Assembly (NCBI GenBank): GCA_003482855.1
Contig: DMXO01000002.1
Coordinates: forward strand, 112,114 to 176,113
Source of the DNA: Candidatus Magasanikiibacteriota bacterium
Lineage (GTDB): Bacteria; Patescibacteriota; Patescibacteriia; Magasanikbacterales; UBA922
Length of the DNA: 64,000 bases
Direction of reading: 5' to 3'
Shown here: positions 8,520 through 42,842 of the stretch, piece by piece
How the letters are laid out: each line of letters starts with the position of its first letter
How positions within the stretch are numbered: the stretch's first letter is position 1
Translations under genes and position numbers: made by a program
Notes under the pieces: generated by a model
Told to the model about the DNA's origin: nothing
Seen by the model: the letters and a program-made list of their open reading frames with translations, nothing else
Database searches by the model: none

Positions 8520-11500
8520 TTAGACAACTATAGAAATCAGCTTTCCCTTCACATAAATCACTTTTTTCGGTTCTTTCCCTTCCAGCCATTTGATCACTTT
8601 TCCACTTCTTAATGCTTCTACCTTTGCATCTTCTTCTGAAATATCTGTTGAAACAGTAATCGTATCGCGCAATTTTCCATTTATCTGTATAGCAAGGGTG
8701 ACAGTATTTTCTTTAGTTAATTCTGGATCGTATACTGGCCAAGGCTGAGTGGTCACAGTATCTTTATTCCCTAGTCTATACCACAATTCTTCAGACATAT
8801 GAGGTGCAAAAGGTGAAAGAAGTTTAATGAGTACAGTATACCCAACTTTTGAAATTTTTTCTTCTTTTAGGAGTACATTCGTGAACTGCATAAGCGCTGC
8901 AATGGCAGTATTAAATTTCAATGCTGCAACATCTTCGCCAACTTTTTTAATTGTTTGGTGCACAAGCGTTGTTAAACTATTACTCTTTGCTTCTGCCTCT
9001 ATTACTTTTTCTTGTAGATTCCAAACTTTATCAAGAAAACGCCTAATTCCTCTTACTCCATTCGTATCCCACGGCTTATCTTCCTCCAACGGCCCCATAA
9101 ACATTTCATACATCCTCATCGTATCCGCACCAAATTCATTGACCACATCTGTTGGATTTATCACATTCCCCCATCTCTTGCTCATCTTTCTATTGTCTGG
9201 TCCAAGAATCAATCCCTGGTGTCTATGAACTTTGAATGGTTCGTCTCCGACCAAGTCGGATCCGCCTTGGGCGGAAAAATCAATATAACCAGCATCGTAT
9301 AATACTTTGGTAAAAAATCGTGAATACAACAAATGCCCGTTCACATGTTCTGGCCCGCCAAGATAAAAATCAACGGGCATCCATTTTTTCAACGCTTCGG
9401 GCGATGCAAACTGCTGATCATTTTTGGGATCAAGATAGCGATAATAATACCAAGATGAACACATAAATGTATCAAGCGTATCTGGTTCGCGATGCCATCC
9501 CTTACCATATCTCTTTTCAACACCTTTTTGAAAATCTTCTGAATACGTCAATGGCGATTGACCTGTTGGTTTGAAGTCTACATCGTCTGGGAGAAGAACA
9601 GGAAGATCAGATTCAGAGACTGGCTTGAGACCAGTGACAATAGATTCCTCTAAAACAGAAGGTTCTATCTTCCCATTAAAATGTCTATCATTTGGTCTTG
9701 CTTTCACCAAACGAGCATCTAACAATTTTTGCATTTCTTCCAAATGTTCTTTTTTAATAGTTTTATAATCACAATCTGCAATCACTACAAATTCATCTGA
9801 TGATGATTTAATTTTTTCAAAATCAAATTCAAATGAATCACTGGCTTCTACGTCTGGACGTTTTTTGTCAGGAAAATCTGGTCGTAATACCGTGTCAACC
9901 AAAATCAATTTTGCAATTTTATTTTTCAATTTCTCCAAAATACGAAATGCAACTGGACCACCCAAACTATGTGCGACTATCACAGTATTTTCATCGATCG
10001 TGGTATTATTCAAAATATATTCGGCCCACTCAACTACATTTGGTTTGTCATTATGTGGCAAGTCTGGTGAAAAGACAGCATGTCCAAGCTGTTCTAACTC
10101 TTTTTTTAACCAAGGACGGAAATCATTATTACCCGTGGCTAAATAACCATGTATAAACACATAATTATATTTTCTATTTTTTCTTTCTTCATTAAACAAC
10201 ATCGGAATCGGTGCACCCCAAAACCGCTGACGAGAAACCGACCAGTCGCGGAGTTTGTATTGTACTTTTCGTTTGCCTATTCCCTTTTCTTCAAGCCATT
10301 GAATCATTTTTTCTTTGGCTTCTTGAGTTGAAAGGCCATCTAAAAAATTAGAATTTATTGCAGTGCCTTCACCTGAAAACAATCTCCCTGTTTTTTCCAA
10401 TGCCCTTCTTATAAATATTTCCTCTGAACCATTGTAAGTTTTCAATTTTTCAATAGCTTCATCTGGAGCCAACCAATTGGCCTCGTAATCTTCATAGCTC
10501 TCAAATGCAGTATCAGTTTTTTTATCACTCAACAATTTAAGCTTCAAGACCCTTTGTAATTTGTTCCATTGAATATTTTTGTCAACCGCATAAAAATTTG
10601 ATTCAATCATTCCTAGATCATCTACAACTTCATAATCCGTATACCCTGCTTCTTCGCGGAGTTCACGCTGTACTGTGTCTTCCACTGTCTCCCCCCGCTC
10701 CATCCCCCCAGATGGTAAACGATAAATATTAAACTTTTTATTAAACAAAACCAAAACCTTATCATCTTTAAAGACAACGGCCGCTGCTGAATCACGGTGT
10801 TTAGCGCTTTTATCAAAACCACCACAATGTTGAACAACTACATCTTTTATTGGTAAATTATATTTCTTCGCAAACTCAAAATCTCTTTCATCATGCGCTG
10901 GTACTGCCATAATTGCGCCAGTTCCATATGTTGCAAGTACATAATCAGCAACAAAAATAGGAATCTCTTCATTTTTCACGGGATTAATTGCTTTTATTCC
11001 TTTTAATTCTACACCTGTTTTTTCTTTCTGCACTTGACGATCAAGTTCAGTCTTTTTTGATGTTGCTTCAATATATTTTTCAACTTCATCCCAATTCTGG
11101 ACTTCGGACTTTAGACTACGGACTACAGCATGTTCAGGTGCTAGAACCATATATGTAGCTCCAAACAAAGTATCAGGTCTTGTAGTAAAAACCGTTATCT
11201 TCTTTTCTTGATTGTGGTCTGAAGTCTGAAGTCTGAAGTCTACTTCCGCTCCTTCCGACTTCCCAATCCAATCCTTCTGCCTTTTCTTCGTCTCTTCTGG
11301 CCAATCAAGTTTATCAATATCATTCAATAATCGTTCGGCATAATCAGTAATTTTGATATACCACTGTTCCATTTCTTTTTGAATAATCAAAGTATCACAT
11401 CGCTCGCAATGTCCTTCTTTTACTTGATCATTTGCAAGAACTGTTTTGCATGAATCACACCAATTCACTGATTGTTTTTTTCTATAGGCTAAACCGCGTT

Positions 11501-35042: not shown

Positions 35043-35984
35043 TTATGGACTTTTAATTTTATGGGCTTTTGGATACTTTATCCCCAACACAATATACCCC
35101 TGACTCTCTACCCATCTACCTACGGTAAGCATCTCAACCAATCCATACAATTCCCAAAACGCAGTTGAAAATGGGTGTGTCTTTTGTTTAATCCAAAAAA
35201 ATATCTTGTTAAAAAATTTAAGTATAGGAAAATTTTTCTGATGTTGCAAGGCATCGTATAATTCATCGGGGTGGGCAAAAAACTTAGCCCAAAAAGTAGA
35301 GTACATTCTTTTTATATCAAACCCAGCCTCATACAATAGTGCCCTAAGCTCATGTTTGCTATACAATGAAATGTGAAACTCGGCATGTGGATCAATATTT
35401 AGTCCACGCTTCAAAAGACAATTTCGTATCCATGCATGCTTTCCCAATTTTGATTCACTAAACATGGCAAGCCTACCACCAGGTCTTAAGACACGATACA
35501 ATTCATCAAGCCACGCAGGTACATCGCGTACATGACCAAGAACATCTGACGTATATACGACATCAAATGATTCGTCTTCAAACGGCAAACGCTTCCCGTC
35601 GTAATGCTGAAACTCAGCCCACACACCATATTCTTTGACCCGCTTCCGTGCTACATCTATTTGCATAGCAATGACATCTACTCCCACGACTTCGACACGC
35701 TTGCCCCACAACTTCTTCATTTCAATAACAGATGCGCCAGTACCACACCCAACATCAAGTATTCGCACATGTGCTCCCGTACTTTTGTGCTTGACTGCTT
35801 TTGTGATAAATCGGTAGAGCAAAAATTTTTTTGGAAAGAAAAACAATTTAAAAAGGTCCTTCCATGTAGCCATCTCTCCCGTGATGACCGGTCGTGCATC
35901 CCAAAATTCAGTATGTGTCCCTTCTATTACTCCCCAGCCTTTGGTTGTTGAATTTTTTTCGTTCATATGAGAGTATTGTATCAT
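35043..35984 (-). CDS. class I SAM-dependent methyltransferase
   Basis: ILDVGCGTGASVIEMKK...VLRPGGRL. Confidence 0.8.
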   Translation of the reverse strand: MIQYSHMNEKNSTTKGWGVIEGTHTEFWDARPVITGEMATWKDLFKLFFFPKKFLLYRFITKAVKHKSTGAHVRILDVGCGTGASVIEMKKLWGKRVEVVGVDVIAMQIDVARKRVKEYGVWAEFQHYDGKRLPFEDESFDVVYTSDVLGHVRDVPAWLDELYRVLRPGGRLAMFSESKLGKHAWIRNCLLKRGLNIDPHAEFHISLYSKHELRALLYEAGFDIKRMYSTFWAKFFAHPDELYDALQHQKNFPILKFFNKIFFWIKQKTHPFSTAFWELYGLVEMLTVGRWVESQGYIVLGIKYPKAHKIKSP

Positions 35985-36076
35985 ATTAGAGTACTTGGTT
36001 CATAGTTAATAGTTCTTGGTTCGGGGTTTATAAAATTGTAAAATAAAAAAAGCCTTTTTCAAAAAGCTTTTCCTTT

Positions 36077-36131
36077 CCGCCGGCCCACTTGGAGCGAAGA
36101 ACCGAAGTCCTTGCTACAAGTGGGCCGGCGG
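36077..36131 (-). terminator. strong GC-rich stem-loop (15-bp perfect stem) immediately after small Cys-rich ORF
   Basis: ccgccggcccacttg-N25-caagtgggccggcgg, followed on minus strand by U-rich tract. Confidence 0.5.
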
Positions 36132-36133
36132 GG

Positions 36134-36313
36134 TCAGCGTCCGGCGTCGGCGCCGCAGTGGCCGCAGTCGTCAGCCGTCTCGCACTCACCCGAGACGTAG
36201 GCCTCCACGCAGGCCGGCTCGATGCCAGAGCCCATGATCTTGTCCCAGGCCATCCACACGATGGCGGCCGGGACGAGCGCTACACGACGCCAGGTCCAAC
36301 GGAATTCCTCCAC
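36134..36313 (-). CDS. small Cys-rich protein (59 aa) in high-GC island
   Basis: AGGAGG SD 5 nt before GTG; VEEFRWTWRRVALVPAAIVWMAWDKIMGSGIEPACVEAYVSGECETADDCGHCGADAGR (N-terminal hydrophobic helix, 5 Cys in C-terminal 25 aa); ~65% GC vs ~37% for surroundings. Confidence 0.35.
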   Translation of the reverse strand: MEEFRWTWRRVALVPAAIVWMAWDKIMGSGIEPACVEAYVSGECETADDCGHCGADAGR

Positions 36314-36379
36314 GGTCTCCTCCTTTCGCGCCTCCTACTGGCGCGTAATCCAGCTATTGCATACACGAAAAAACATATT

Positions 36380-37099
36380 ATGTCAACCCTCCATTCAGGT
36401 TTTCTCCTCATCAACAAACCAAAAAACTGGACCAGCCATGATGTCGTGGCTTATGTTAGAAACATTGCACGAAAAGCTACTGGAGAGAGAAAAATACGTG
36501 TAGGACATGCAGGAACGCTTGATCCATTTGCTACTGGTCTTCTCATTGTCGGTGTTGGACGCGAAGCAACAAAAAGGCTAGATGAATTCAAATCATTGTC
36601 AAAAACATACATTGCAACACTCAGATGTGGAGCGACAAGCAATACCTACGATAGTACTGGAATAATTCAACAATGTAACAATGAAACAATGAAGCAATTA
36701 TCAACAAAACTAACCCTAAAAAAAATACATATTGTTGTACAATCGTTTCTTGGTAAACAAAATCAAACCCCTCCCATGTACTCTGCAAAAAAAATAAATG
36801 GTAAAAAATTATATGAACTCGCGCGAAAAGGAATAGAGATTAAACGAAAATCAAATGAAATTGAGATATTGGATATTAAGATATTAGAATATTCATGGCC
36901 GACACTGACTATTGAAGTACAATGTTCTTCAGGGACGTATATCCGTACGCTTGCACACGACATCGGTCAAAAACTTGACTGCGGTGCGTACTGTGAAGAA
37001 TTGGAACGCACGAGCATCGGGGAATATAAAATTGAAAACACGGTTGATCCCAAAAAAATTACAAGGGAAAATATAGAATCTCTCATCATGAAATTATAA
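36380..37099 (+). CDS. truB: tRNA pseudouridine(55) synthase
   Basis: LLINKPKNWTSHDVV...GHAGTLDPFATGLL (catalytic Asp); start at ATG 36380 (MSTLHSG); the ORF-track N-terminal extension from 36089 is high-GC read-through of a foreign-looking island. Confidence 0.85.
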   Translation: MSTLHSGFLLINKPKNWTSHDVVAYVRNIARKATGERKIRVGHAGTLDPFATGLLIVGVGREATKRLDEFKSLSKTYIATLRCGATSNTYDSTGIIQQCNNETMKQLSTKLTLKKIHIVVQSFLGKQNQTPPMYSAKKINGKKLYELARKGIEIKRKSNEIEILDIKILEYSWPTLTIEVQCSSGTYIRTLAHDIGQKLDCGAYCEELERTSIGEYKIENTVDPKKITRENIESLIMKL

Positions 37100-37123
37100 A
37101 TCTGGAACAAAAATTGACCAAAC

Positions 37124-37160
37124 AACCACCCGATTACTCGTGGTGGTTTTATTTATTCGG
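37124..37160 (+). terminator. rho-independent terminator after truB
   Basis: aaccacc-cgattactc-gtggtgg followed by TTTTATTTATT. Confidence 0.5.
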
Positions 37161-37210
37161 CCTAGCCCCGAATTATCGGGCTGAAGATGGATTGACAAAA
37201 ACAAAAATCT

Positions 37211-37762
37211 ATGTTAGATTCGAACGTCCGTTTGCCGACTTTTCCCGATGGCGACGGACAAAGGAAAAAAGTGTATTTCACAACGAAAGGCTTGCTATTC
37301 TGGGTTGACGACGACCAGTACGACATGGAGGAAACACTCTACGTGCTCCTCCCGGATGGCAGGCAGATCGATGCGGGTCTCCTCCTCCAAGAGGAGGACG
37401 ATGAGAATCAGAAAGTGATCGTCGATCTCGACAAAATCACTGACGAAGATCCCCATGCTCCAGTCTACGTTGGGGGAATTATGGCCACCTTGGTCGGGTT
37501 GGCCGAGACGCCCGTCGACATCGTCGAGAAGATGAACGACGGACGTGGGCAGTACTCCTTCCAGGTTACACTTTCGAACCCGTATGACCTCGCACTCCTG
37601 CGCATGGTCGCGAAGGCCATGTGTCATGGAGGTGTCGAGATCATCCACGCGGACTCTCTCGACAGGGAGCTGGGCTCTGATCCTCTTGCGACAGTCGATG
37701 ACATCCTCATCGCCCCCGAGGTCAGCGTGCCGACGCCCGAAGAGCTCGACGACAACAGGTGA
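37211..37762 (+). CDS. hypothetical acidic protein (183 aa) in high-GC island
   Basis: long ORF with ~60% GC and GC3-rich codon usage unlike neighbours; no SD seen; start uncertain. Confidence 0.4.
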   Translation: MLDSNVRLPTFPDGDGQRKKVYFTTKGLLFWVDDDQYDMEETLYVLLPDGRQIDAGLLLQEEDDENQKVIVDLDKITDEDPHAPVYVGGIMATLVGLAETPVDIVEKMNDGRGQYSFQVTLSNPYDLALLRMVAKAMCHGGVEIIHADSLDRELGSDPLATVDDILIAPEVSVPTPEELDDNR

Positions 37763-37951
37763 GACTCATCGCGGGCCCAAGTGACTCCGCGACTGACCTG
37801 CGACATATCGAGCAGAACTACACGAATCCGAGGACGCGCGACTTCTTCGCGCCTGGCGCACACGCGTCCTCGGGTTCATCACATCAAACTGCATACCAGT
37901 TTGTTTTTATTTATCCACACCCATTTGCTTTAGACTAGCGAAATACAAAGA

Positions 37952-37980
37952 TTGACAAAAGCACTAAAACCTGCTACACT
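37952..37980 (+). promoter_or_regulatory. putative sigma70-type promoter upstream of rny
   Basis: TTGACA-17 nt-TACACT. Confidence 0.35.
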
Positions 37981-38262
37981 CAATACGCATTTCAATATAT
38001 AGGTTCGAGAGTTACACGTATGCAAGAGATATGAATGCAAGCTATACTATTATCAAACTTCGCTAAATTATGAGAAAAAAGGAATTAAAAATTCAAAACC
38101 TTTCTTTTTCATATAGTGTATTTCTTTCTAAAAATACATCTATAGCACCTCTCAAATAGTACGAGATCCAAAATCTCGAGCTTCTTCGTGTCATCATATA
38201 CATGTCAAACTCTCAATACTAGAGTAATTTTATTTTAATCTAAACGTAATTAATATACATGT

Positions 38263-39789
38263 ATGTCAGAACTTACACTAATAGTCACCATACTTGGTGG
38301 GCTCATACTGGGCGGAGGACTTGGGTACTTCATCCGAGTGCAAATGGGCAAAGCCAAGGCAAACTCTGTAGAAGCAAAAGCAGAGAAAATGCTCAATGAG
38401 GCAAAACAAAAAGAGCAAGAACTTTTGCTCCACGCAAAAGAAAAAGCTATCAAAATAATTGATGACTCAAAAAAAGAAGAAAATGATCGCAGAAGCGAGC
38501 TTGGTCAATTGCAAAAAAGACTCACTGAACGCGAGTCCATGTTTGACCAAAAACTTATGGAGTTTGAAGAGCGAAAGACAAATCTTCAACAAAAAGTAGA
38601 AGAAATACAGGCTATCAAACAAAAAGTTGATCTCTTGCGAGAAGATGCAACAAAAAAATTGGAAACAATCTCAAACATGACACGAGAAGAAGCAAAAGAA
38701 GAGATTATCCACCAAGTCGAAGAACAAAGTCAGGAAGATCTATTTGGTCGCATCATGAAAATTGAACGTACCAATAGTGAAAAATACGAAATTAAAGCTC
38801 GTGAAGTAGTACTCTCTGCAATACAACGATGTGCGTCTGATCATTCTTCAGAGACAACTTCGACCTCAGTAAATCTCCCTAGTGACGAAATGAAGGGGCG
38901 GATTATAGGAAAAGACGGCCGTAACATCAAAACTATTGAAAAACTTACTGGCTGTGAATTAATCATTGACGACACGCCAGACATGCTCCTGGTCTCAGGA
39001 TTCTCCCCTATCCGCCGACGTGTTGCACAAATTGCAATTGAAAAATTGATCAAAGACGGCCGTATCCAGCCAGCACGTATCGAAGAATTCATAGAAGAAG
39101 CAAAAAGAGAACTTGCTATCGATATCAAACAGGCAGGAGAAGAGGCTCTCTACAAACTAGGTATTACAGGACTTGATCCAAAACTTGTGTCTATCGTCGG
39201 ACGTCTCAAATATCGTACTAGTTATGGCCAAAATATTCTGAACCATTCAGCCGAAGTAGCACATCTGTCTGCACTCATTGCACAAGAGCTTGGAGTAGAT
39301 GCTGCAACAGCAAAGAAAGCAGGGTTCTTCCATGATATAGGTAAAGCAGTAGACCAAGAGACGCAAGGTGGTCATCCGGAAATTGGAGAAACCATCCTCA
39401 AAAAATTTGGTCTTCCTGTAGAAATCCAAGATGCAGCTGCTCACCACCATGATGACAAGCCTGAGAGCGTCATCACACAGATCGTGAAGGCAGCAGATGC
39501 TATATCTGGATCACGCGTCGGAGCACGTCGCGATACGTATGAACAATACGTGGCACGTCTCGAAGAGCTTGAGGCAACAGCAAGTGGTTTTGCAGGCATT
39601 GATAAAGTATACGCAATTCAAGCTGGACGCGAAGTACGCATATTTGTAAAACCAGAAGAAATTGATGATTACGAAGCATATAATCTAGCAAAAGACATTG
39701 CTCGTAAAATAGAAAATGAACTTCAGTATCCTGGCGAAATCAAAGTGCACGTCATCCGAGAATCACGCGTCATCGAATATGCTAAGTAA
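38263..39789 (+). CDS. rny: ribonuclease Y
   Basis: N-terminal TM helix, KH domain (GRIIGKDGRNIKTIEKLTG), HD domain (HSAEVAHLSALIAQELG...FFHDIGKA); 508 aa. Confidence 0.9.
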   Translation: MSELTLIVTILGGLILGGGLGYFIRVQMGKAKANSVEAKAEKMLNEAKQKEQELLLHAKEKAIKIIDDSKKEENDRRSELGQLQKRLTERESMFDQKLMEFEERKTNLQQKVEEIQAIKQKVDLLREDATKKLETISNMTREEAKEEIIHQVEEQSQEDLFGRIMKIERTNSEKYEIKAREVVLSAIQRCASDHSSETTSTSVNLPSDEMKGRIIGKDGRNIKTIEKLTGCELIIDDTPDMLLVSGFSPIRRRVAQIAIEKLIKDGRIQPARIEEFIEEAKRELAIDIKQAGEEALYKLGITGLDPKLVSIVGRLKYRTSYGQNILNHSAEVAHLSALIAQELGVDAATAKKAGFFHDIGKAVDQETQGGHPEIGETILKKFGLPVEIQDAAAHHHDDKPESVITQIVKAADAISGSRVGARRDTYEQYVARLEELEATASGFAGIDKVYAIQAGREVRIFVKPEEIDDYEAYNLAKDIARKIENELQYPGEIKVHVIRESRVIEYAK

Positions 39790-39790
39790 T

Positions 39791-39819
39791 ACAAAACTCC
39801 CTTCGGGGAGTTTTTGTTT
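39791..39819 (+). terminator. rho-independent terminator after rny
   Basis: aaactccc-ttcg-gggagttt-ttgttt. Confidence 0.6.
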
Positions 39820-39986
39820 CAAATCCTAAATTCTAAACCAAAAATCCTAAACAAACTAAAATGTTCAAATTACCAAAACTCTAAACGTGATTGTTTGTGG
39901 TATTAGTGCTTTATTAATTTTGTATTATTTAGAATTTCGATATTAGAATTTCGAATTTACACGATTGTGGATAAAAAATGCCTCTA

Positions 39987-40015
39987 TTGACAGCTTTTTC
40001 TATGTATTATACAAT
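39987..40015 (+). promoter_or_regulatory. putative sigma70-type promoter for HU gene
   Basis: TTGACA-17 nt-TACAAT; HU gene has AAGGAA SD. Confidence 0.4.
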
Positions 40016-40093
40016 AAATCTGTAATAGTAATCTCATTTATCTTCTAACCTTCCCCATGAACCTATCAGTTTCTTGGGGAATAAGGAACACAT

Positions 40094-40372
40094 ATGAACA
40101 AAGCAGAATTGGCACAGGCCATAGCCGACAAAGCAGGAGTATCCAAAAAGGAAGCAGAAAGTATGGTAGCTTCTTTTGTACAAATTGTTACCACCACTAT
40201 CAAAGGCGGTGGCGAGGTAAATATTGCAGGCTTTGGTGCATTTAGCGCAAAGATGCGTGCAGGACGCGTCGGAGTCAACCCACAAAACCCAACACAAAAA
40301 ATTCAAATCCCCCCTGTCACCGTGCCAAAATTCAAAGCTGGCAAAGCATTGAAAGATGCGTTGAAGAAATAG
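40094..40372 (+). CDS. hup: DNA-binding protein HU
   Basis: MNKAELAQAIADKAGVSKKEAE...GFGAFSAKMRAGRVGVNPQN...: HU/IHF family signature; 92 aa. Confidence 0.9.
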   Translation: MNKAELAQAIADKAGVSKKEAESMVASFVQIVTTTIKGGGEVNIAGFGAFSAKMRAGRVGVNPQNPTQKIQIPPVTVPKFKAGKALKDALKK

Positions 40373-40387
40373 AATAACAATTTACAC

Positions 40388-40418
40388 AAAAACCTCTCAT
40401 AATGAGAGGTTTTTTATT
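40388..40418 (+). terminator. rho-independent terminator after HU gene
   Basis: acctctc-ataat-gagaggt-tttttatttttt. Confidence 0.6.
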
Positions 40419-40432
40419 TTTTCATGAAACTG

Positions 40433-40556
40433 TGTCAGAGGGGAGGATCGAACTCCCGACCTTAGCGTTATGAATGCTACGCTCTAACCGACTGAGTCCC
40501 GAGGCGAGCTCGGGATCCCGATTCAGCCCCAAGGCTGACATCGGGACTACTCTCCA
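40433..40556 (-). pseudogene. tRNA-Met(CAT)-like second copy with ~50-nt twin-hairpin insertion in D-arm and mismatched acceptor stem (pseudogene or insertion-containing tRNA)
   Basis: revcomp: TGGAGAGTAG-[TCCCGATGTCAGCCTTGGGGCTGAATCGGGA TCCCGAGCTCGCCTCGGGA]-CTCAGTCGGTTAGAGCGTAGCATTCATAACGCTAAGGTCGGGAGTTCGATCCTCCCCTCTGACA; D-arm to 3' end nearly identical to tRNA at 40824-40900 with compensatory T-stem changes; 5' acceptor strand pairs only 4/7. Confidence 0.5.
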
Positions 40557-40822
40557 ATATTATTTTTATCTTCAATAATTTTTTCAATAATAATTCTGCT
40601 TTTCTGTCTCTTTAGCCAACGTTCTCTTTGGTAAGCTTCCTCGATTGAGCTAAACTTTTCAATTTTCTTTAATTCCCAAGGTCTTTTTGTGACTGTAGAT
40701 TTTGATTGTCCACGGTTATGTTCTTTTATCCTTCTTTCAATATTATTAGTTACGCCAATATAAAAACTCCCATGTTTTATACTTTGTAAAAAATATACAT
40801 AATATGGGAGTTTTATACTCAT
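40547..40822 (-). CDS. GIY-YIG nuclease family protein (small UPF0213/YhbQ-like)
   Basis: MSIKLPYYVYFLQSIKHGSFYIGVTNNIERRIKEHNRG: GIY-(10)-YIG, Arg, Glu and Asn catalytic residues; ORF starts 2-3 nt after tRNA-Met 3' end and its TAG stop lies in the 5' end of the downstream tRNA-like copy. Confidence 0.8.
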   Translation of the reverse strand: MSIKLPYYVYFLQSIKHGSFYIGVTNNIERRIKEHNRGQSKSTVTKRPWELKKIEKFSSIEEAYQRERWLKRQKSRIIIEKIIEDKNNIGE

Positions 40823-40823
40823 A

Positions 40824-40900
40824 TTGTGACAGAGGAGGGAATCGAACCCTCGACCTTAGCGTTATGAATGCTACGCTCTAACCGACTGAGCTACTCTGTC
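40824..40900 (-). tRNA. tRNA-Met (anticodon CAT; elongator-type or tRNA-Ile2 lysidine-type)
   Basis: GACAGAG TA GCTC AGTCGGTTA GAGC G TAGCA TTCATAA CGCTA AGGTC GAGGG TTCGATT CCCTC CTCTGTC A; cloverleaf by eye; no GGG/CCC initiator signature in anticodon stem. Confidence 0.8.
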
Positions 40901-40929
40901 ATAGTTATAATTTCGAATTTTTTAACCAG

Positions 40930-41001
40930 TACCGCCACGGGGAATTGAACCCCGGTTGCATGGATGAGAACCATGCGTCCTAGCCACTAGACGATGGCGG
41001 C
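40930..41001 (-). tRNA. tRNA-Glu (anticodon CTC)
   Basis: GCCGCCA TC GTC TAGTGGCTAGGAC G CATGG TTCTCAT CCATG ... GGGGT TCAATTC CCCCG TGGCGGT A; resembles bacterial tRNA-Glu (TCGTCTAG D-arm). Confidence 0.75.
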
Positions 41002-41072
41002 GTATATATCTTTTCAAAAAATACAAAGAGAGCGAGCATAGTATACTGTATATAGACTCATCTGTCAACGAA

Positions 41073-42842
41073 TCATCTATCTGGTGGAACCCGATAATAT
41101 TGCATAATATACTTGGCAATCTCTGCAAACGTAGGTGCAGCTGTCGTCGACGCGTATGCACGCTTGGGTTTTTCAAATTTAACTATCATTACAAATTTTG
41201 GATCATCAACAGGACCGAAGCCAATGAACGAATGATTTGTGTCTGCCAGATAACCCCCCGGTCCAGGAATCTGTGCAGTCCCCGTCTTGCCTGCCACATA
41301 GTACCCCGGCACATGCCCTAATCGTGCCGATCCCACGTCTACTACGCGAACAAGCATACCAGACAAAAGTTGTGCTGTTCTCTTTTCAATTACCTGTCTA
41401 ATTATCTTCGGCTTTGTCTCTTCTATCTTACCATTTGGATATATAACATCTTTGATAATATATGGCTTCAAAAGAGTACCACCATTTGCAATAGCAGCAA
41501 ACGCACTTACCATTTGGAGAGGAGTAGCGGTAATGCCCTGCCCAAAAGATGCTGTGGCTGTGTAACAATCTATTTTGTCTTTTTTGTTGCGATAAAGTGA
41601 GTCTATAGTGCCCGATGACTCAGTATTGAGCTCTATGCCTGTCTTTACGCCAAAACCAAATCGTTCCACATAATCTCTAAATCGTTCTTTGCCGAGTGAG
41701 GTAACCACATGCACCATCCCAGTGTTTATTGAATTTTCAAGAACGCCAGTCATAGTTTGGTCACCATACGATTTGAAATCAGCATTTTTGATAGGCTTCG
41801 TACATCCGACATCTACGCTACCACTGTCAAAAAAATAAGAGTCTGGTGTTACTATTTCTTCATTCAAAGCCGCAGCCATACCAATTGGCTTGAATATAGA
41901 ACCAGGTTCGTAAGGAGTAAATATGTTGAGATTATTATATGCGTCTATTGATTCAACCTCATTGTACGTATTTGGATCAAAATCAGGCAAAGAGCACATA
42001 GCTGTTATTGCTCCTGTCTTCGGATCCATAATAACTAAAGAAGCAGTCTGTGCTCCATACTCATCCATCCGTTGTTTCAAAATATCACACGCTTTGAACT
42101 GAAGTGTACGGTCGATAGTTAATGTAAGACTTACGCCATCTTCTGCTGGTTCAAATAAACGACCGGCAAGCGGTATCCATCCGCCTTTCGCACCCATAGC
42201 GCCTTCAAGAAAACCACCCGTGCCTGATAATTCTTTATTCCAATATCCTTCGATACCATAACTCCCGATGTCATTGCCATCTGCGTCTTTTCCCAAAAAA
42301 CCTATAACTTGCGATGCGAGCGATGCCTCAGGATAAAAACGGTGTGGTCTCCTTACAAAATGGATGCCCGGCAATTTAAGTCCGTCAATCATATCTGCAA
42401 TTTCTTGTTCTACTTTTTTTTCAAGAGGCTCATAAGGATCGTCACGCTTACTGAGCTGCATATAGAGACTCAACTTTTTTTCGTCGTCATAATGAAACAA
42501 CTCAGCTAATTTCTCAGCTATGTCTTCTGCCGTCTCATCATCTTGAATTACCCGCGTATCAACATACATCAAAAACAAGTCCCTATTTATTGCAAGAGGA
42601 TATCTCTCCTGCGAATCCTGCGACTCGAGATAGATAGACCCACGTTCAGGGAAAAGCTGCGCATATATATCATGGGATCCTGAAGCAAGCGCGGTGTAAA
42701 ACCCGTGTTGCCATACCATAAGTACAAAAAGACGAAACACAATAAACAAAAATACGACGGTGAACAGTATGCCCACCGCGCGTATTCGAGAATCCTGTGT
42801 GCCAGGACGTTCAAAGCTATTATGAGAGCGTACGTGTCTCAT
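41073..42842 (-). CDS. penicillin-binding protein 2 / class B transpeptidase
   Basis: N-terminal TM anchor; KTGTAQ (KTG motif), transpeptidase domain; 589 aa. Confidence 0.8.
   Translation of the reverse strand: MRHVRSHNSFERPGTQDSRIRAVGILFTVVFLFIVFRLFVLMVWQHGFYTALASGSHDIYAQLFPERGSIYLESQDSQERYPLAINRDLFLMYVDTRVIQDDETAEDIAEKLAELFHYDDEKKLSLYMQLSKRDDPYEPLEKKVEQEIADMIDGLKLPGIHFVRRPHRFYPEASLASQVIGFLGKDADGNDIGSYGIEGYWNKELSGTGGFLEGAMGAKGGWIPLAGRLFEPAEDGVSLTLTIDRTLQFKACDILKQRMDEYGAQTASLVIMDPKTGAITAMCSLPDFDPNTYNEVESIDAYNNLNIFTPYEPGSIFKPIGMAAALNEEIVTPDSYFFDSGSVDVGCTKPIKNADFKSYGDQTMTGVLENSINTGMVHVVTSLGKERFRDYVERFGFGVKTGIELNTESSGTIDSLYRNKKDKIDCYTATASFGQGITATPLQMVSAFAAIANGGTLLKPYIIKDVIYPNGKIEETKPKIIRQVIEKRTAQLLSGMLVRVVDVGSARLGHVPGYYVAGKTGTAQIPGPGGYLADTNHSFIGFGPVDDPKFVMIVKFEKPKRAYASTTAAPTFAEIAKYIMQYYRVPPDR

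Follow-up and report, generated by a model that had tools for sequence, protein, structure and literature searches.

What are two short stretches rich in guanine plus cytosine (GC) doing on either side of truB, an ordinary housekeeping gene, in the AT-rich chromosome of an uncultured bacterium? The question arises in a 64 kb stretch of a Candidatus Magasanikbacteria chromosome, referred to below as the window. With moderate confidence, we read these two islands as accessory transcription units built on orphan genes, resembling the morons of phages and placed between conserved housekeeping genes.

The mean GC content of the window is 39.2%, and it contains only two long stretches above 55%. With limits drawn from 40-nt GC windows, island 1 spans 36077-36345 (269 bp, 68.4% GC; the maximum for an equal length elsewhere in the 64 kb is 52.0%, z = 6.7), and the core of island 2 spans 37290-37880 (591 bp, 58.7% GC; equal-length maximum elsewhere 49.6%, z = 5.8). 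The DNA directly beside the islands measures 27-30% GC. Both edges of island 1 are sharp (27% GC in 35985-36076 and 29% in 36346-36379), as is the right edge of island 2 at about 37880; at its left edge GC climbs gradually across 37140-37290. An earlier, sequence-only reading of the window had described two high-GC islands in a background of 35-40% GC, with a low-GC, ordinary truB between them, and the values found here agree. Of the abrupt edges that it reported, those of island 1 and the right edge of island 2 hold up, but the one at 37190 does not. The truB gene is native and intact, an ordinary low-GC gene outside the islets (as we call units of this kind), and it is 57-68% identical to the truB genes at the same position in relatives.

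Island 1 has the layout of a single small gene on the minus strand, with the following parts in reading order:

36358..36386, minus strand: possible promoter, weak, read from the sequence: TTGACA (36386->36381), 17 nt, TATGCA (36363->36358)
36317..36344, minus strand: 5' leader of orf59, with a small hairpin (36326-36344) and the Shine-Dalgarno sequence AAAGGAGGAG 5 nt before the GTG
36134..36313 (36313->36134), minus strand: orf59, an open reading frame (ORF) of 59 amino acids (aa) with a GTG start, recognized by its coding signal and a homologue in the related locus L002
36077..36131, minus strand: GC hairpin with 24-nt arms, 88% complementary, including 15 perfect pairs; it starts 2 nt past the orf59 stop
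36032..36074, minus strand: AT-rich hairpin and U-run, predicted intrinsic terminator of the island-1 unit

The start codon, the Shine-Dalgarno sequence, the length of 59 aa and the stem-loop with 15 perfect pairs 2 nt from the stop had all been reported from the sequence alone, and all are borne out. The putative promoter overlaps the truB start codon; a consensus scan missed it because the second hexamer lacks the final T. Its equivalent in L002 is TTGACT-16-TATAAA. For the 111-nt 3' region (36030-36140), the folding energy is -56.1 kcal/mol (z = -8.7), and the flank of the terminator, GTAAAATAAAAAAAGC, is conserved in five species. The promoter region and gene of the neighboring methyltransferase come after this terminator, which would insulate the methyltransferase promoter.

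The orf59 peptide consists of an N-terminal RR, a hydrophobic core and an acidic C-terminal part with four Cys residues (C-x8-C-x5-C-x2-C), one fewer than the five counted previously. As for the hydrophobic helix proposed at that time, the hydrophobic segment measures only about 13 residues (maximum Kyte-Doolittle 15-residue mean 1.31), which is short for a membrane helix. Judged from the sequence, such a short core after RR is more like that of a signal peptide than like a complete membrane helix. Export or membrane tethering of the product is probable, and its acidic four-Cys domain is likely disulfide-bonded. An AlphaFold2 model made with no alignment has helices at residues 9-28 and 33-40, with a mean predicted local distance difference test score (pLDDT) of 67. 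The GC fractions at codon positions 1, 2 and 3 are 0.65, 0.57 and 0.83.

Island 2 and its surroundings, on the plus strand, contain the following:

37192..37220, plus strand: promoter-like site TTGACA, 17 nt, TG-TAGATT, from the consensus scan (10/12 matches)
37211..37762, plus strand: orf183, an acidic orphan protein of at most 183 aa with no signal peptide
37766..37877, plus strand: GC-rich 3' untranslated hairpins (z = -4.9), the main one at 37824-37877 (15-nt arms, 93% complementary)
37885..37913, plus strand: predicted intrinsic terminator of the island-2 unit, a 7-bp stem followed by TTTTTATTTA
37952..37980, plus strand: native promoter-like site of rny, the RNase Y gene (TTGACA, 17 nt, TG-TACACT), at the end of the inserted unit

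Should transcription start from the island-2 promoter, the ATG at 37211 would lie upstream of the transcript, and we infer that the in-frame GTG at 37271, which follows AAAGGA, would then serve as the start of a 163-aa protein. The product is probably an acidic, cytoplasmic protein of 163-183 aa. The sequence-only reading had pointed to a highly acidic 183-aa ORF with many GC-ending codons; this is confirmed by a calculated isoelectric point of 4.1 (38 D+E versus 14 K+R) and by a GC fraction at third codon positions (GC3) of 0.70. Its GC fractions at codon positions 1, 2 and 3 are 0.65, 0.33 and 0.70, compared with 0.60, 0.33 and 0.32 in the adjoining RNase Y gene. Since the first two values are close to those of RNase Y, the protein has an ordinary composition, and the difference lies almost entirely in synonymous choice. 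A single-sequence AlphaFold2 model of orf183 reaches a pLDDT of 48, at which the fold is not predictable, and a Foldseek search of the PDB with this model gave no match at E <= 0.001, a result that is uninformative. Beyond the island, 37952-38113 is 77% identical to the rny leader of L002.

Two repeats were seen around island 2. A 14-nt direct repeat, GATTGACAAAA[A/G]CA, occurs at 37190-37203 and 37950-37963, 760 bp apart, and forms the -35 region of both the island-2 and the rny promoter-like sites. An AT-rich 18-nt inverted repeat (83% complementary; 37188-37205 and 37900-37917) brackets the island. These could reflect duplication of a promoter at insertion or chance in AT-rich DNA.

Are the ORFs real, or are they incidental to islands that encode structured non-coding RNAs? 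Genes of that kind typically have a high GC content in AT-rich genomes. The other GC peaks in these genomes are tRNA genes, the 3' ends of both islands form exceptionally stable hairpins (z = -8.7 and -4.9), and chance long ORFs are expected in GC-rich DNA. The 3' hairpins are nevertheless the only exceptional part: the folding of the ORF portions exceeds that of shuffled sequence only slightly (z = -2.0 and -1.35). Rfam found tRNAs elsewhere and only noise in the islands, both with the gathering threshold across the whole window and with E <= 10 for 35900-38300. Because of the weak folding of the ORFs and the empty Rfam result, a structured RNA is unlikely. The coding signals argue in the same direction. 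GC3 is 0.83 in orf59 and 0.70 in orf183, compared with 0.21-0.40 in the other 41 long ORFs of the window, so that orf183 is the single GC3 outlier among 42. Codon periodicity is clear (in orf183, 0.33 at second versus 0.70 at third positions), and a strong ribosome-binding site stands at the correct spacing. The peptides of orf59 and L002 are alike as proteins while likeness of their DNA is undetectable, with a ratio of non-synonymous to synonymous substitution rates (dN/dS) of 0.2. The description of each island as carrying a credible ORF, preceded by a strong ribosome-binding site and closed by a hairpin, stands, and we consider the RNA explanation very unlikely.

Does the arrangement recur in other genomes? 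With RNase Y as the handle, 32 genome loci and 30 metagenome loci were fetched, and these loci of relatives are given L numbers here. The genes that flank the islands in the window are as follows:

35043-35984, minus strand: class I S-adenosylmethionine (SAM) methyltransferase (Methyltransf_11/25, by Pfam), left of island 1
36380..37099, plus strand: truB, tRNA pseudouridine-55 synthase (Pfam TruB_N, 6e-48), 36.9% GC
38263-39789, plus strand: RNase Y (rny), right of island 2

The order tkt(-), methyltransferase(-), truB(+), rny(+), HU(+) is conserved in Magasanikbacteria. Six relatives (L003, L004, L006, L019, L027 and L035) have short AT-rich gaps, of 25-176 bp between the methyltransferase and truB and 249-555 bp between truB and rny; the corresponding gaps in the window are 395 and 1163 bp. 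In many other relatives, GC-rich islets occupy the same gaps:

Between tkt and the methyltransferase: L002, L039, L041, L012
Between the methyltransferase and truB: window, L002, L005, L007/L042, L034
Between truB and rny: window, L002, L008/L043, L009, L010, L012, L044, L049

The islets of relatives have 50-70% GC. As DNA they cannot be aligned with one another, and only the native AT-rich flanks align. Their ORFs have strong ribosome-binding sites, GC3 values of 0.6-0.9, frequent acidity and, in most cases, an N-terminal hydrophobic segment; all 16 islet ORFs examined are poor in A at third positions. Ten islet ORFs of relatives were searched against Pfam, and none belongs to a family.

Several further observations concern these loci. 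The truB frame is open upstream across island 1, giving a spurious 336-aa ORF (36089-37099, TTG start); comparison with relatives puts the true start at 36380, and the longer ORF is a likely trap for gene calling. A second small membrane-protein gene (62-70 aa; MKRV.L...FGS.CLFGPP) lies beside truB in L002 (4189-4392, minus strand), L034 (4532-4744, minus strand) and L007 (4547-4735, minus strand). It is missing in the window, where orf59 and truB are 66 nt apart. GC-rich stretches other than tRNA genes are also found between rny and HU (L039, 7603-8147) and between HU and a tRNA gene (L041, 8083-8421); the phenomenon may therefore reach beyond the three gaps around truB and could be genome-wide. 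Five records (L004, L005, L009, L012 and L015) are titled 'uncultured Gammaproteobacteria bacterium', with RNase Y 56-78% identical to that of the Magasanikbacteria genome studied here. Three of them (L004, L005 and L012) have the full order from tkt to HU, and the Gammaproteobacteria labels look wrong.

In a neighbor-joining tree of RNase Y, the islet between the methyltransferase and truB is present in every member of the clade formed by the window and L001 (a sister assembly described below), L002, L007/L042 and L034. The islets between truB and rny in L008/L043, L044 and L012 belong to another clade, and those between tkt and the methyltransferase in L039 and L041 to a third. All five islets compared between the methyltransferase and truB (window, L002, L007, L034 and L005) end, on the minus strand, in two hairpins, first a GC-rich one and then the AT-rich one of the terminator; the sequence of the GC hairpin differs in each species while the fold is kept.

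Some islet ORFs are also homologous as proteins. The counterpart of orf59 is a 68-aa ORF of L002 (3849-4055, minus strand), in the same gap and on the same strand, which has in common with it the motifs MA-x-DK and G-[IM]-[ED]-P-x-C-[VL]-E-[AG]-Y-[VI]-x-G-x-C. The pair is detected by blastp (4e-6 in a set of 127 sequences), by phmmer (0.005-0.009 among 11,757 six-frame segments) and by a Smith-Waterman score of 70, compared with 24 +/- 4.6 for shuffles, of which 0/5000 reach 70. Other pairs from matching gaps are the L002 67-aa and L034 70-aa ORFs (E 6e-4, pairwise), the L008 200-aa and L044 117-aa ORFs (E 4e-13), and the islet ORFs of L039 and L041 (E 1e-6). By eye, the C-terminus of orf183 had seemed similar to the L008/L044 islet protein family; neither BLASTP nor hhalign supports this.

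For two of these pairs, synonymous divergence (dS) can be compared with that of the flanking genes:

L008/L044, islet gene: dS 0.87, dN/dS 0.56
L008/L044, truB and rny: dS 0.61-0.68, dN/dS 0.05-0.19
Window/L002, orf59 family: dS 2.55 (saturated), dN/dS 0.20 over the alignable part
Window/L002, truB and rny: dS 2.27-2.34 (saturated), dN/dS 0.04-0.11

Since dS in the islets matches that of the flanks, the islet genes are resident, co-diverging and weakly constrained protein genes. In the aligned codons of the orf59 family, GC3 is 0.91 in the window and 0.63 in L002, versus about 0.3 genome-wide. With silent sites saturated and GC3 still high, the high GC of island 1, at the least, has been maintained and is not left over from a recent import.

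Could the islands instead be an artifact of assembly, with foreign GC-rich reads joined into the contig? Apart from the abrupt jumps in composition, the one circumstance that fits is a scaffold gap within island 1 (window 36161-36171) in L001 (GCA_001783195.1, Candidatus Magasanikbacteria bacterium RIFOXYC2_FULL_39), a separate assembly of essentially the same organism. Scaffold gaps aside, however, L001 is identical to the window at all four island junctions, and at least 12 assemblies from other studies and habitats, genomes and metagenomes of unrelated projects among them, have islets in the same gaps. Some of these islets hold homologous ORFs and a 3' module of the kind seen in island 1; no flanking gene is damaged, and the islands sit neatly between native promoter and terminator signals. 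The identical junctions and the cross-species islets rule out a chimeric join, which the sequence-only reading had allowed for, and we give this explanation almost no weight. The N-gaps in L001 are at 9020-9030, 9428-9447 and 9577-9601 (window 36161-36171, 36569-36588 and 36718-36742), in island 1 and truB. The gene table of L001 has no gene between a tkt fragment and orf183, possibly owing to these gaps.

A more serious question is whether both islands were recently acquired from a high-GC donor and have not yet drifted toward the host in composition, as had been proposed from the sequence. Acquired bacterial DNA normally does drift in this way. The composition of both islands does look foreign, and the strong Shine-Dalgarno sequence and GTG start are atypical of the host. 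The orf183 gene is lineage-specific: in L002, the closest relative, this gap holds an unrelated ORF that runs in the opposite direction. Over 36812-41767, the sole substitution between the window and L001 falls in orf183 (codon 95, 37493-37495, Val to Gly, non-synonymous). The database searches, on the other hand, turned up no donor for either ORF. A word-indexed search of 5.8 billion proteins returned only orf183 itself (P0001, RIFOXYC2_FULL_39, 99% identical) and, for orf59 alone or as a two-sequence profile, no match. When orf183 was run exhaustively by phmmer on 1.8 billion cluster representatives, no credible relative emerged, only itself and P0002. The latter contains seven Cna_B-domain matches, and its score is the sum of six weak repeat matches; orf183 has no Cna_B in Pfam, and the hit was set aside as spurious or inconclusive. 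Neither island ORF has a family in Pfam, PHROGs, PADLOC or NCBIfam (a Cas6e N-terminal match of orf183, 13 bits, E 0.025-0.096, is below threshold and was treated as chance), a match by protein or DNA among viral contigs and phage and plasmid records, or a hit in sequence searches of the PDB.

Signs of mobility are likewise scarce. There is no integrase or transposase among the ORFs of the islands and flanking genes, and no repeats or paralogues linking the two islands were found in the window or the fetched loci. At the islands themselves, the only repeats are the 14-nt match (37190, 37950) and the AT-rich inverted repeat (18 nt, 83%) described above, neither of them convincing. The promoter and terminator parts are AT-rich and native-looking. 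Recent import of island 1 is contradicted by its presence throughout the clade, the positional homologue, the common 3' module, a saturated dS equal to that of the flanks and a GC3 that is still 0.6-0.9. Overall, recent transfer of both islands seems rather unlikely to us, and its weight falls mainly on island 2. Of the proposal of horizontal acquisition, then, the foreign-looking composition stands, recent import does not stand for island 1, and later acquisition is compatible with the data for island 2.

What might the island-1 peptide do? One answer is that island 1 is similar to a type I toxin-antitoxin locus, in which orf59 would be a Hok-like membrane toxin held in check by its structured mRNA and an antisense RNA, possibly the truB leader. 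A short ORF whose product is hydrophobic toward its N-terminus and bears Cys residues at the C-terminal end would suit this, as would its intergenic position, fast evolution and stable hairpins in leader and trailer, and transcription from a putative promoter overlapping the truB start would be divergent and overlapping. Yet no toxin family was found in Pfam, NCBIfam or PADLOC, the 13-residue core (Kyte-Doolittle 1.31) after RR makes a better signal peptide, and most of the peptide is the acidic domain containing Cys. We regard a toxin as improbable. The suggestion of a metal-binding product or a ribosomally synthesized and post-translationally modified peptide (RiPP) finds no support. No dedicated RiPP enzyme co-occurs with orf59: its neighbors are truB and the class I SAM methyltransferase, both of which are kept in relatives that lack the peptide. 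Because the methyltransferase is conserved in relatives with no islets, it does not count as an islet-specific modifying enzyme, and a RiPP cluster fails on this point.

We return to the reading that we favor, that of moron-like accessory units. Each unit would comprise, in order, a sigma-70-like promoter, a strong Shine-Dalgarno sequence, one short and fast-evolving orphan ORF, a stable GC hairpin at the 3' end and an AT-rich intrinsic terminator. The terminators would shield the neighbors, the methyltransferase in the case of island 1 and rny in that of island 2, from islet transcription. The signal-like N-terminus of orf59 would direct the acidic four-Cys domain to the cell surface or outside the cell. 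The units would reside in the chromosome and be inherited vertically within clades, and at least three gaps of the tkt-methyltransferase-truB-rny cluster would change their content over time. Most of the GC excess sits at third codon positions; in the island-1 family it would have been kept high through saturation of silent sites and would not be the fading trace of an import. It might be caused by selection acting on mRNA or DNA, or by recurrent replacement, through the conserved flanks, from a GC-rich pool that has not been sampled. It is our conjecture that the islets play an accessory role in interaction with hosts or phages, an idea prompted by their fast evolution, the predicted surface exposure of many islet products and the fixed variable slots. 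The layout of the units, their coding signal, their recurrence in relatives and their divergence in step with the flanking genes are observations, whereas peptide export, use of the promoters, the source of the GC bias and any biological role are inferred.

Several points weigh against this account. It draws on sequence data throughout; its promoters are consensus matches, and that of island 1 is a weak one. The argument for vertical inheritance of orf59 depends on one homologue and 35 alignable codons. The orf183 gene has no homologue anywhere searched, the fetched loci of relatives included, and its status as a coding sequence depends on ORF length, codon periodicity and regulatory signals. 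The ORF that L002 carries between truB and rny, acidic and 76 aa long, is unrelated to it and lies on the opposite strand. Because orf183 is lineage-specific, island 2 may be a separate, later gain. The relatives were compared mostly at one gene cluster (tkt to HU), a scope within which special gaps and genome-wide scatter look alike. Finally, the account offers candidate causes for the high GC3 and does not choose among them.

Recurrence across species and, in the island-1 family, a persistent GC bias lift the islands above a one-off case. Tentatively, they may represent an undescribed class of tiny GC-rich orphan-gene islets in Magasanikbacteria, and perhaps in other Patescibacteria, in which GC-rich codon usage is actively kept against AT drift; a literature search on GC-rich islands or islets in Patescibacteria or Magasanikbacteria found nothing relevant. 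If that were true, an unrecognized force would be implied, such as a benefit from nuclease-resistant, long-lived mRNAs, adaptation to interaction with or expression in a high-GC host, or replacement from a GC-rich mobile pool by homology-assisted recombination. If confirmed, the islets would be a concrete test case for the upkeep of gene-specific base composition, and GC3 outliers in conserved gaps would provide a simple finder for accessory genes of Patescibacteria. Many islet products are small membrane, exported or acidic proteins, and could include factors for interaction with hosts or phages.

One unrelated feature was seen to the right of rny. A 91-aa GIY-YIG ORF (40547-40822, minus strand) lies between direct repeats of about 66 nt with 91% identity (40431-40496 and 40825-40890). 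One repeat belongs to tRNA-Met (40826-40900); the second gives a truncated, tRNA-like match in Rfam (30.9 bits, model positions 9-63). The segment 40431-40900 has the look of a small GIY-YIG element that was inserted at tRNA-Met, duplicating part of the tRNA.

How do the islets compare with known systems? Island 1 resembles an integron cassette in that one short orphan ORF has an imperfect palindrome of about 55 nt directly behind it. Unlike a cassette, it is not in an array, and it has its own promoter-like site and predicted terminator; by inspection, the ends of its hairpin lack the RYYYAAC/GTTRRRY core sites of attC, on which ground the cassette reading was rejected, and no dedicated search for integrase homologues was made. 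Like Hok/Sok-like type I loci, it lies between genes, is poorly conserved in sequence and encodes a small peptide, hydrophobic at its N-terminus, on a strongly structured mRNA, but orf59 has no family match, a hydrophobic segment below membrane-helix length and an acidic C-terminal domain with Cys residues.

The comparison with phage morons is closer. Morons in general are additions relative to related genomes, have a GC content unlike that of the surrounding genes, and are equipped with a promoter and terminator of their own (Cumby, Davidson & Maxwell 2012, PMC3594210). The islets, too, are extra genes between genes that are adjacent in relatives (the short gaps in six of them), and their composition is unlike that of their neighbors (68% and 59% versus 39% GC; GC3 0.83 and 0.70 versus 0.21-0.40). 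As for regulatory parts of their own, U-run terminators are predicted for both units, with a good promoter-like site in island 2 and a weak one in island 1. The islets differ from morons in lying not in a phage or prophage but in a housekeeping cluster (tkt, methyltransferase, truB, rny, HU) that is syntenic across the phylum, and in being inherited vertically across a clade; because of this chromosomal setting and inheritance, we do not place them in the moron category itself. They also stand 20-30 GC points above the host, a difference that in the island-1 family has persisted over saturated divergence, and their ORFs match no PHROG, phage or viral contig.

Hypervariable slots, or genomic islets, offer the other close parallel: fixed positions between core genes, content that varies with the species, and mostly small membrane or exported proteins. 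The islets described here are smaller and simpler (0.3-0.9 kb and one or two ORFs, with no integrase, tRNA target or repeats), and they are far GC-richer than the host. In bacteria, both acquired islands and orphan genes confined to one lineage are reportedly AT-richer than their hosts in most cases. The pattern here is the reverse of the usual bacterial one, with GC-rich units of 0.3-0.9 kb recurring at the same gaps among species of an uncultured, host-dependent phylum. These moron-like islets, or hypervariable slots, of groundwater Candidatus Magasanikbacteria carry new orphan protein families.

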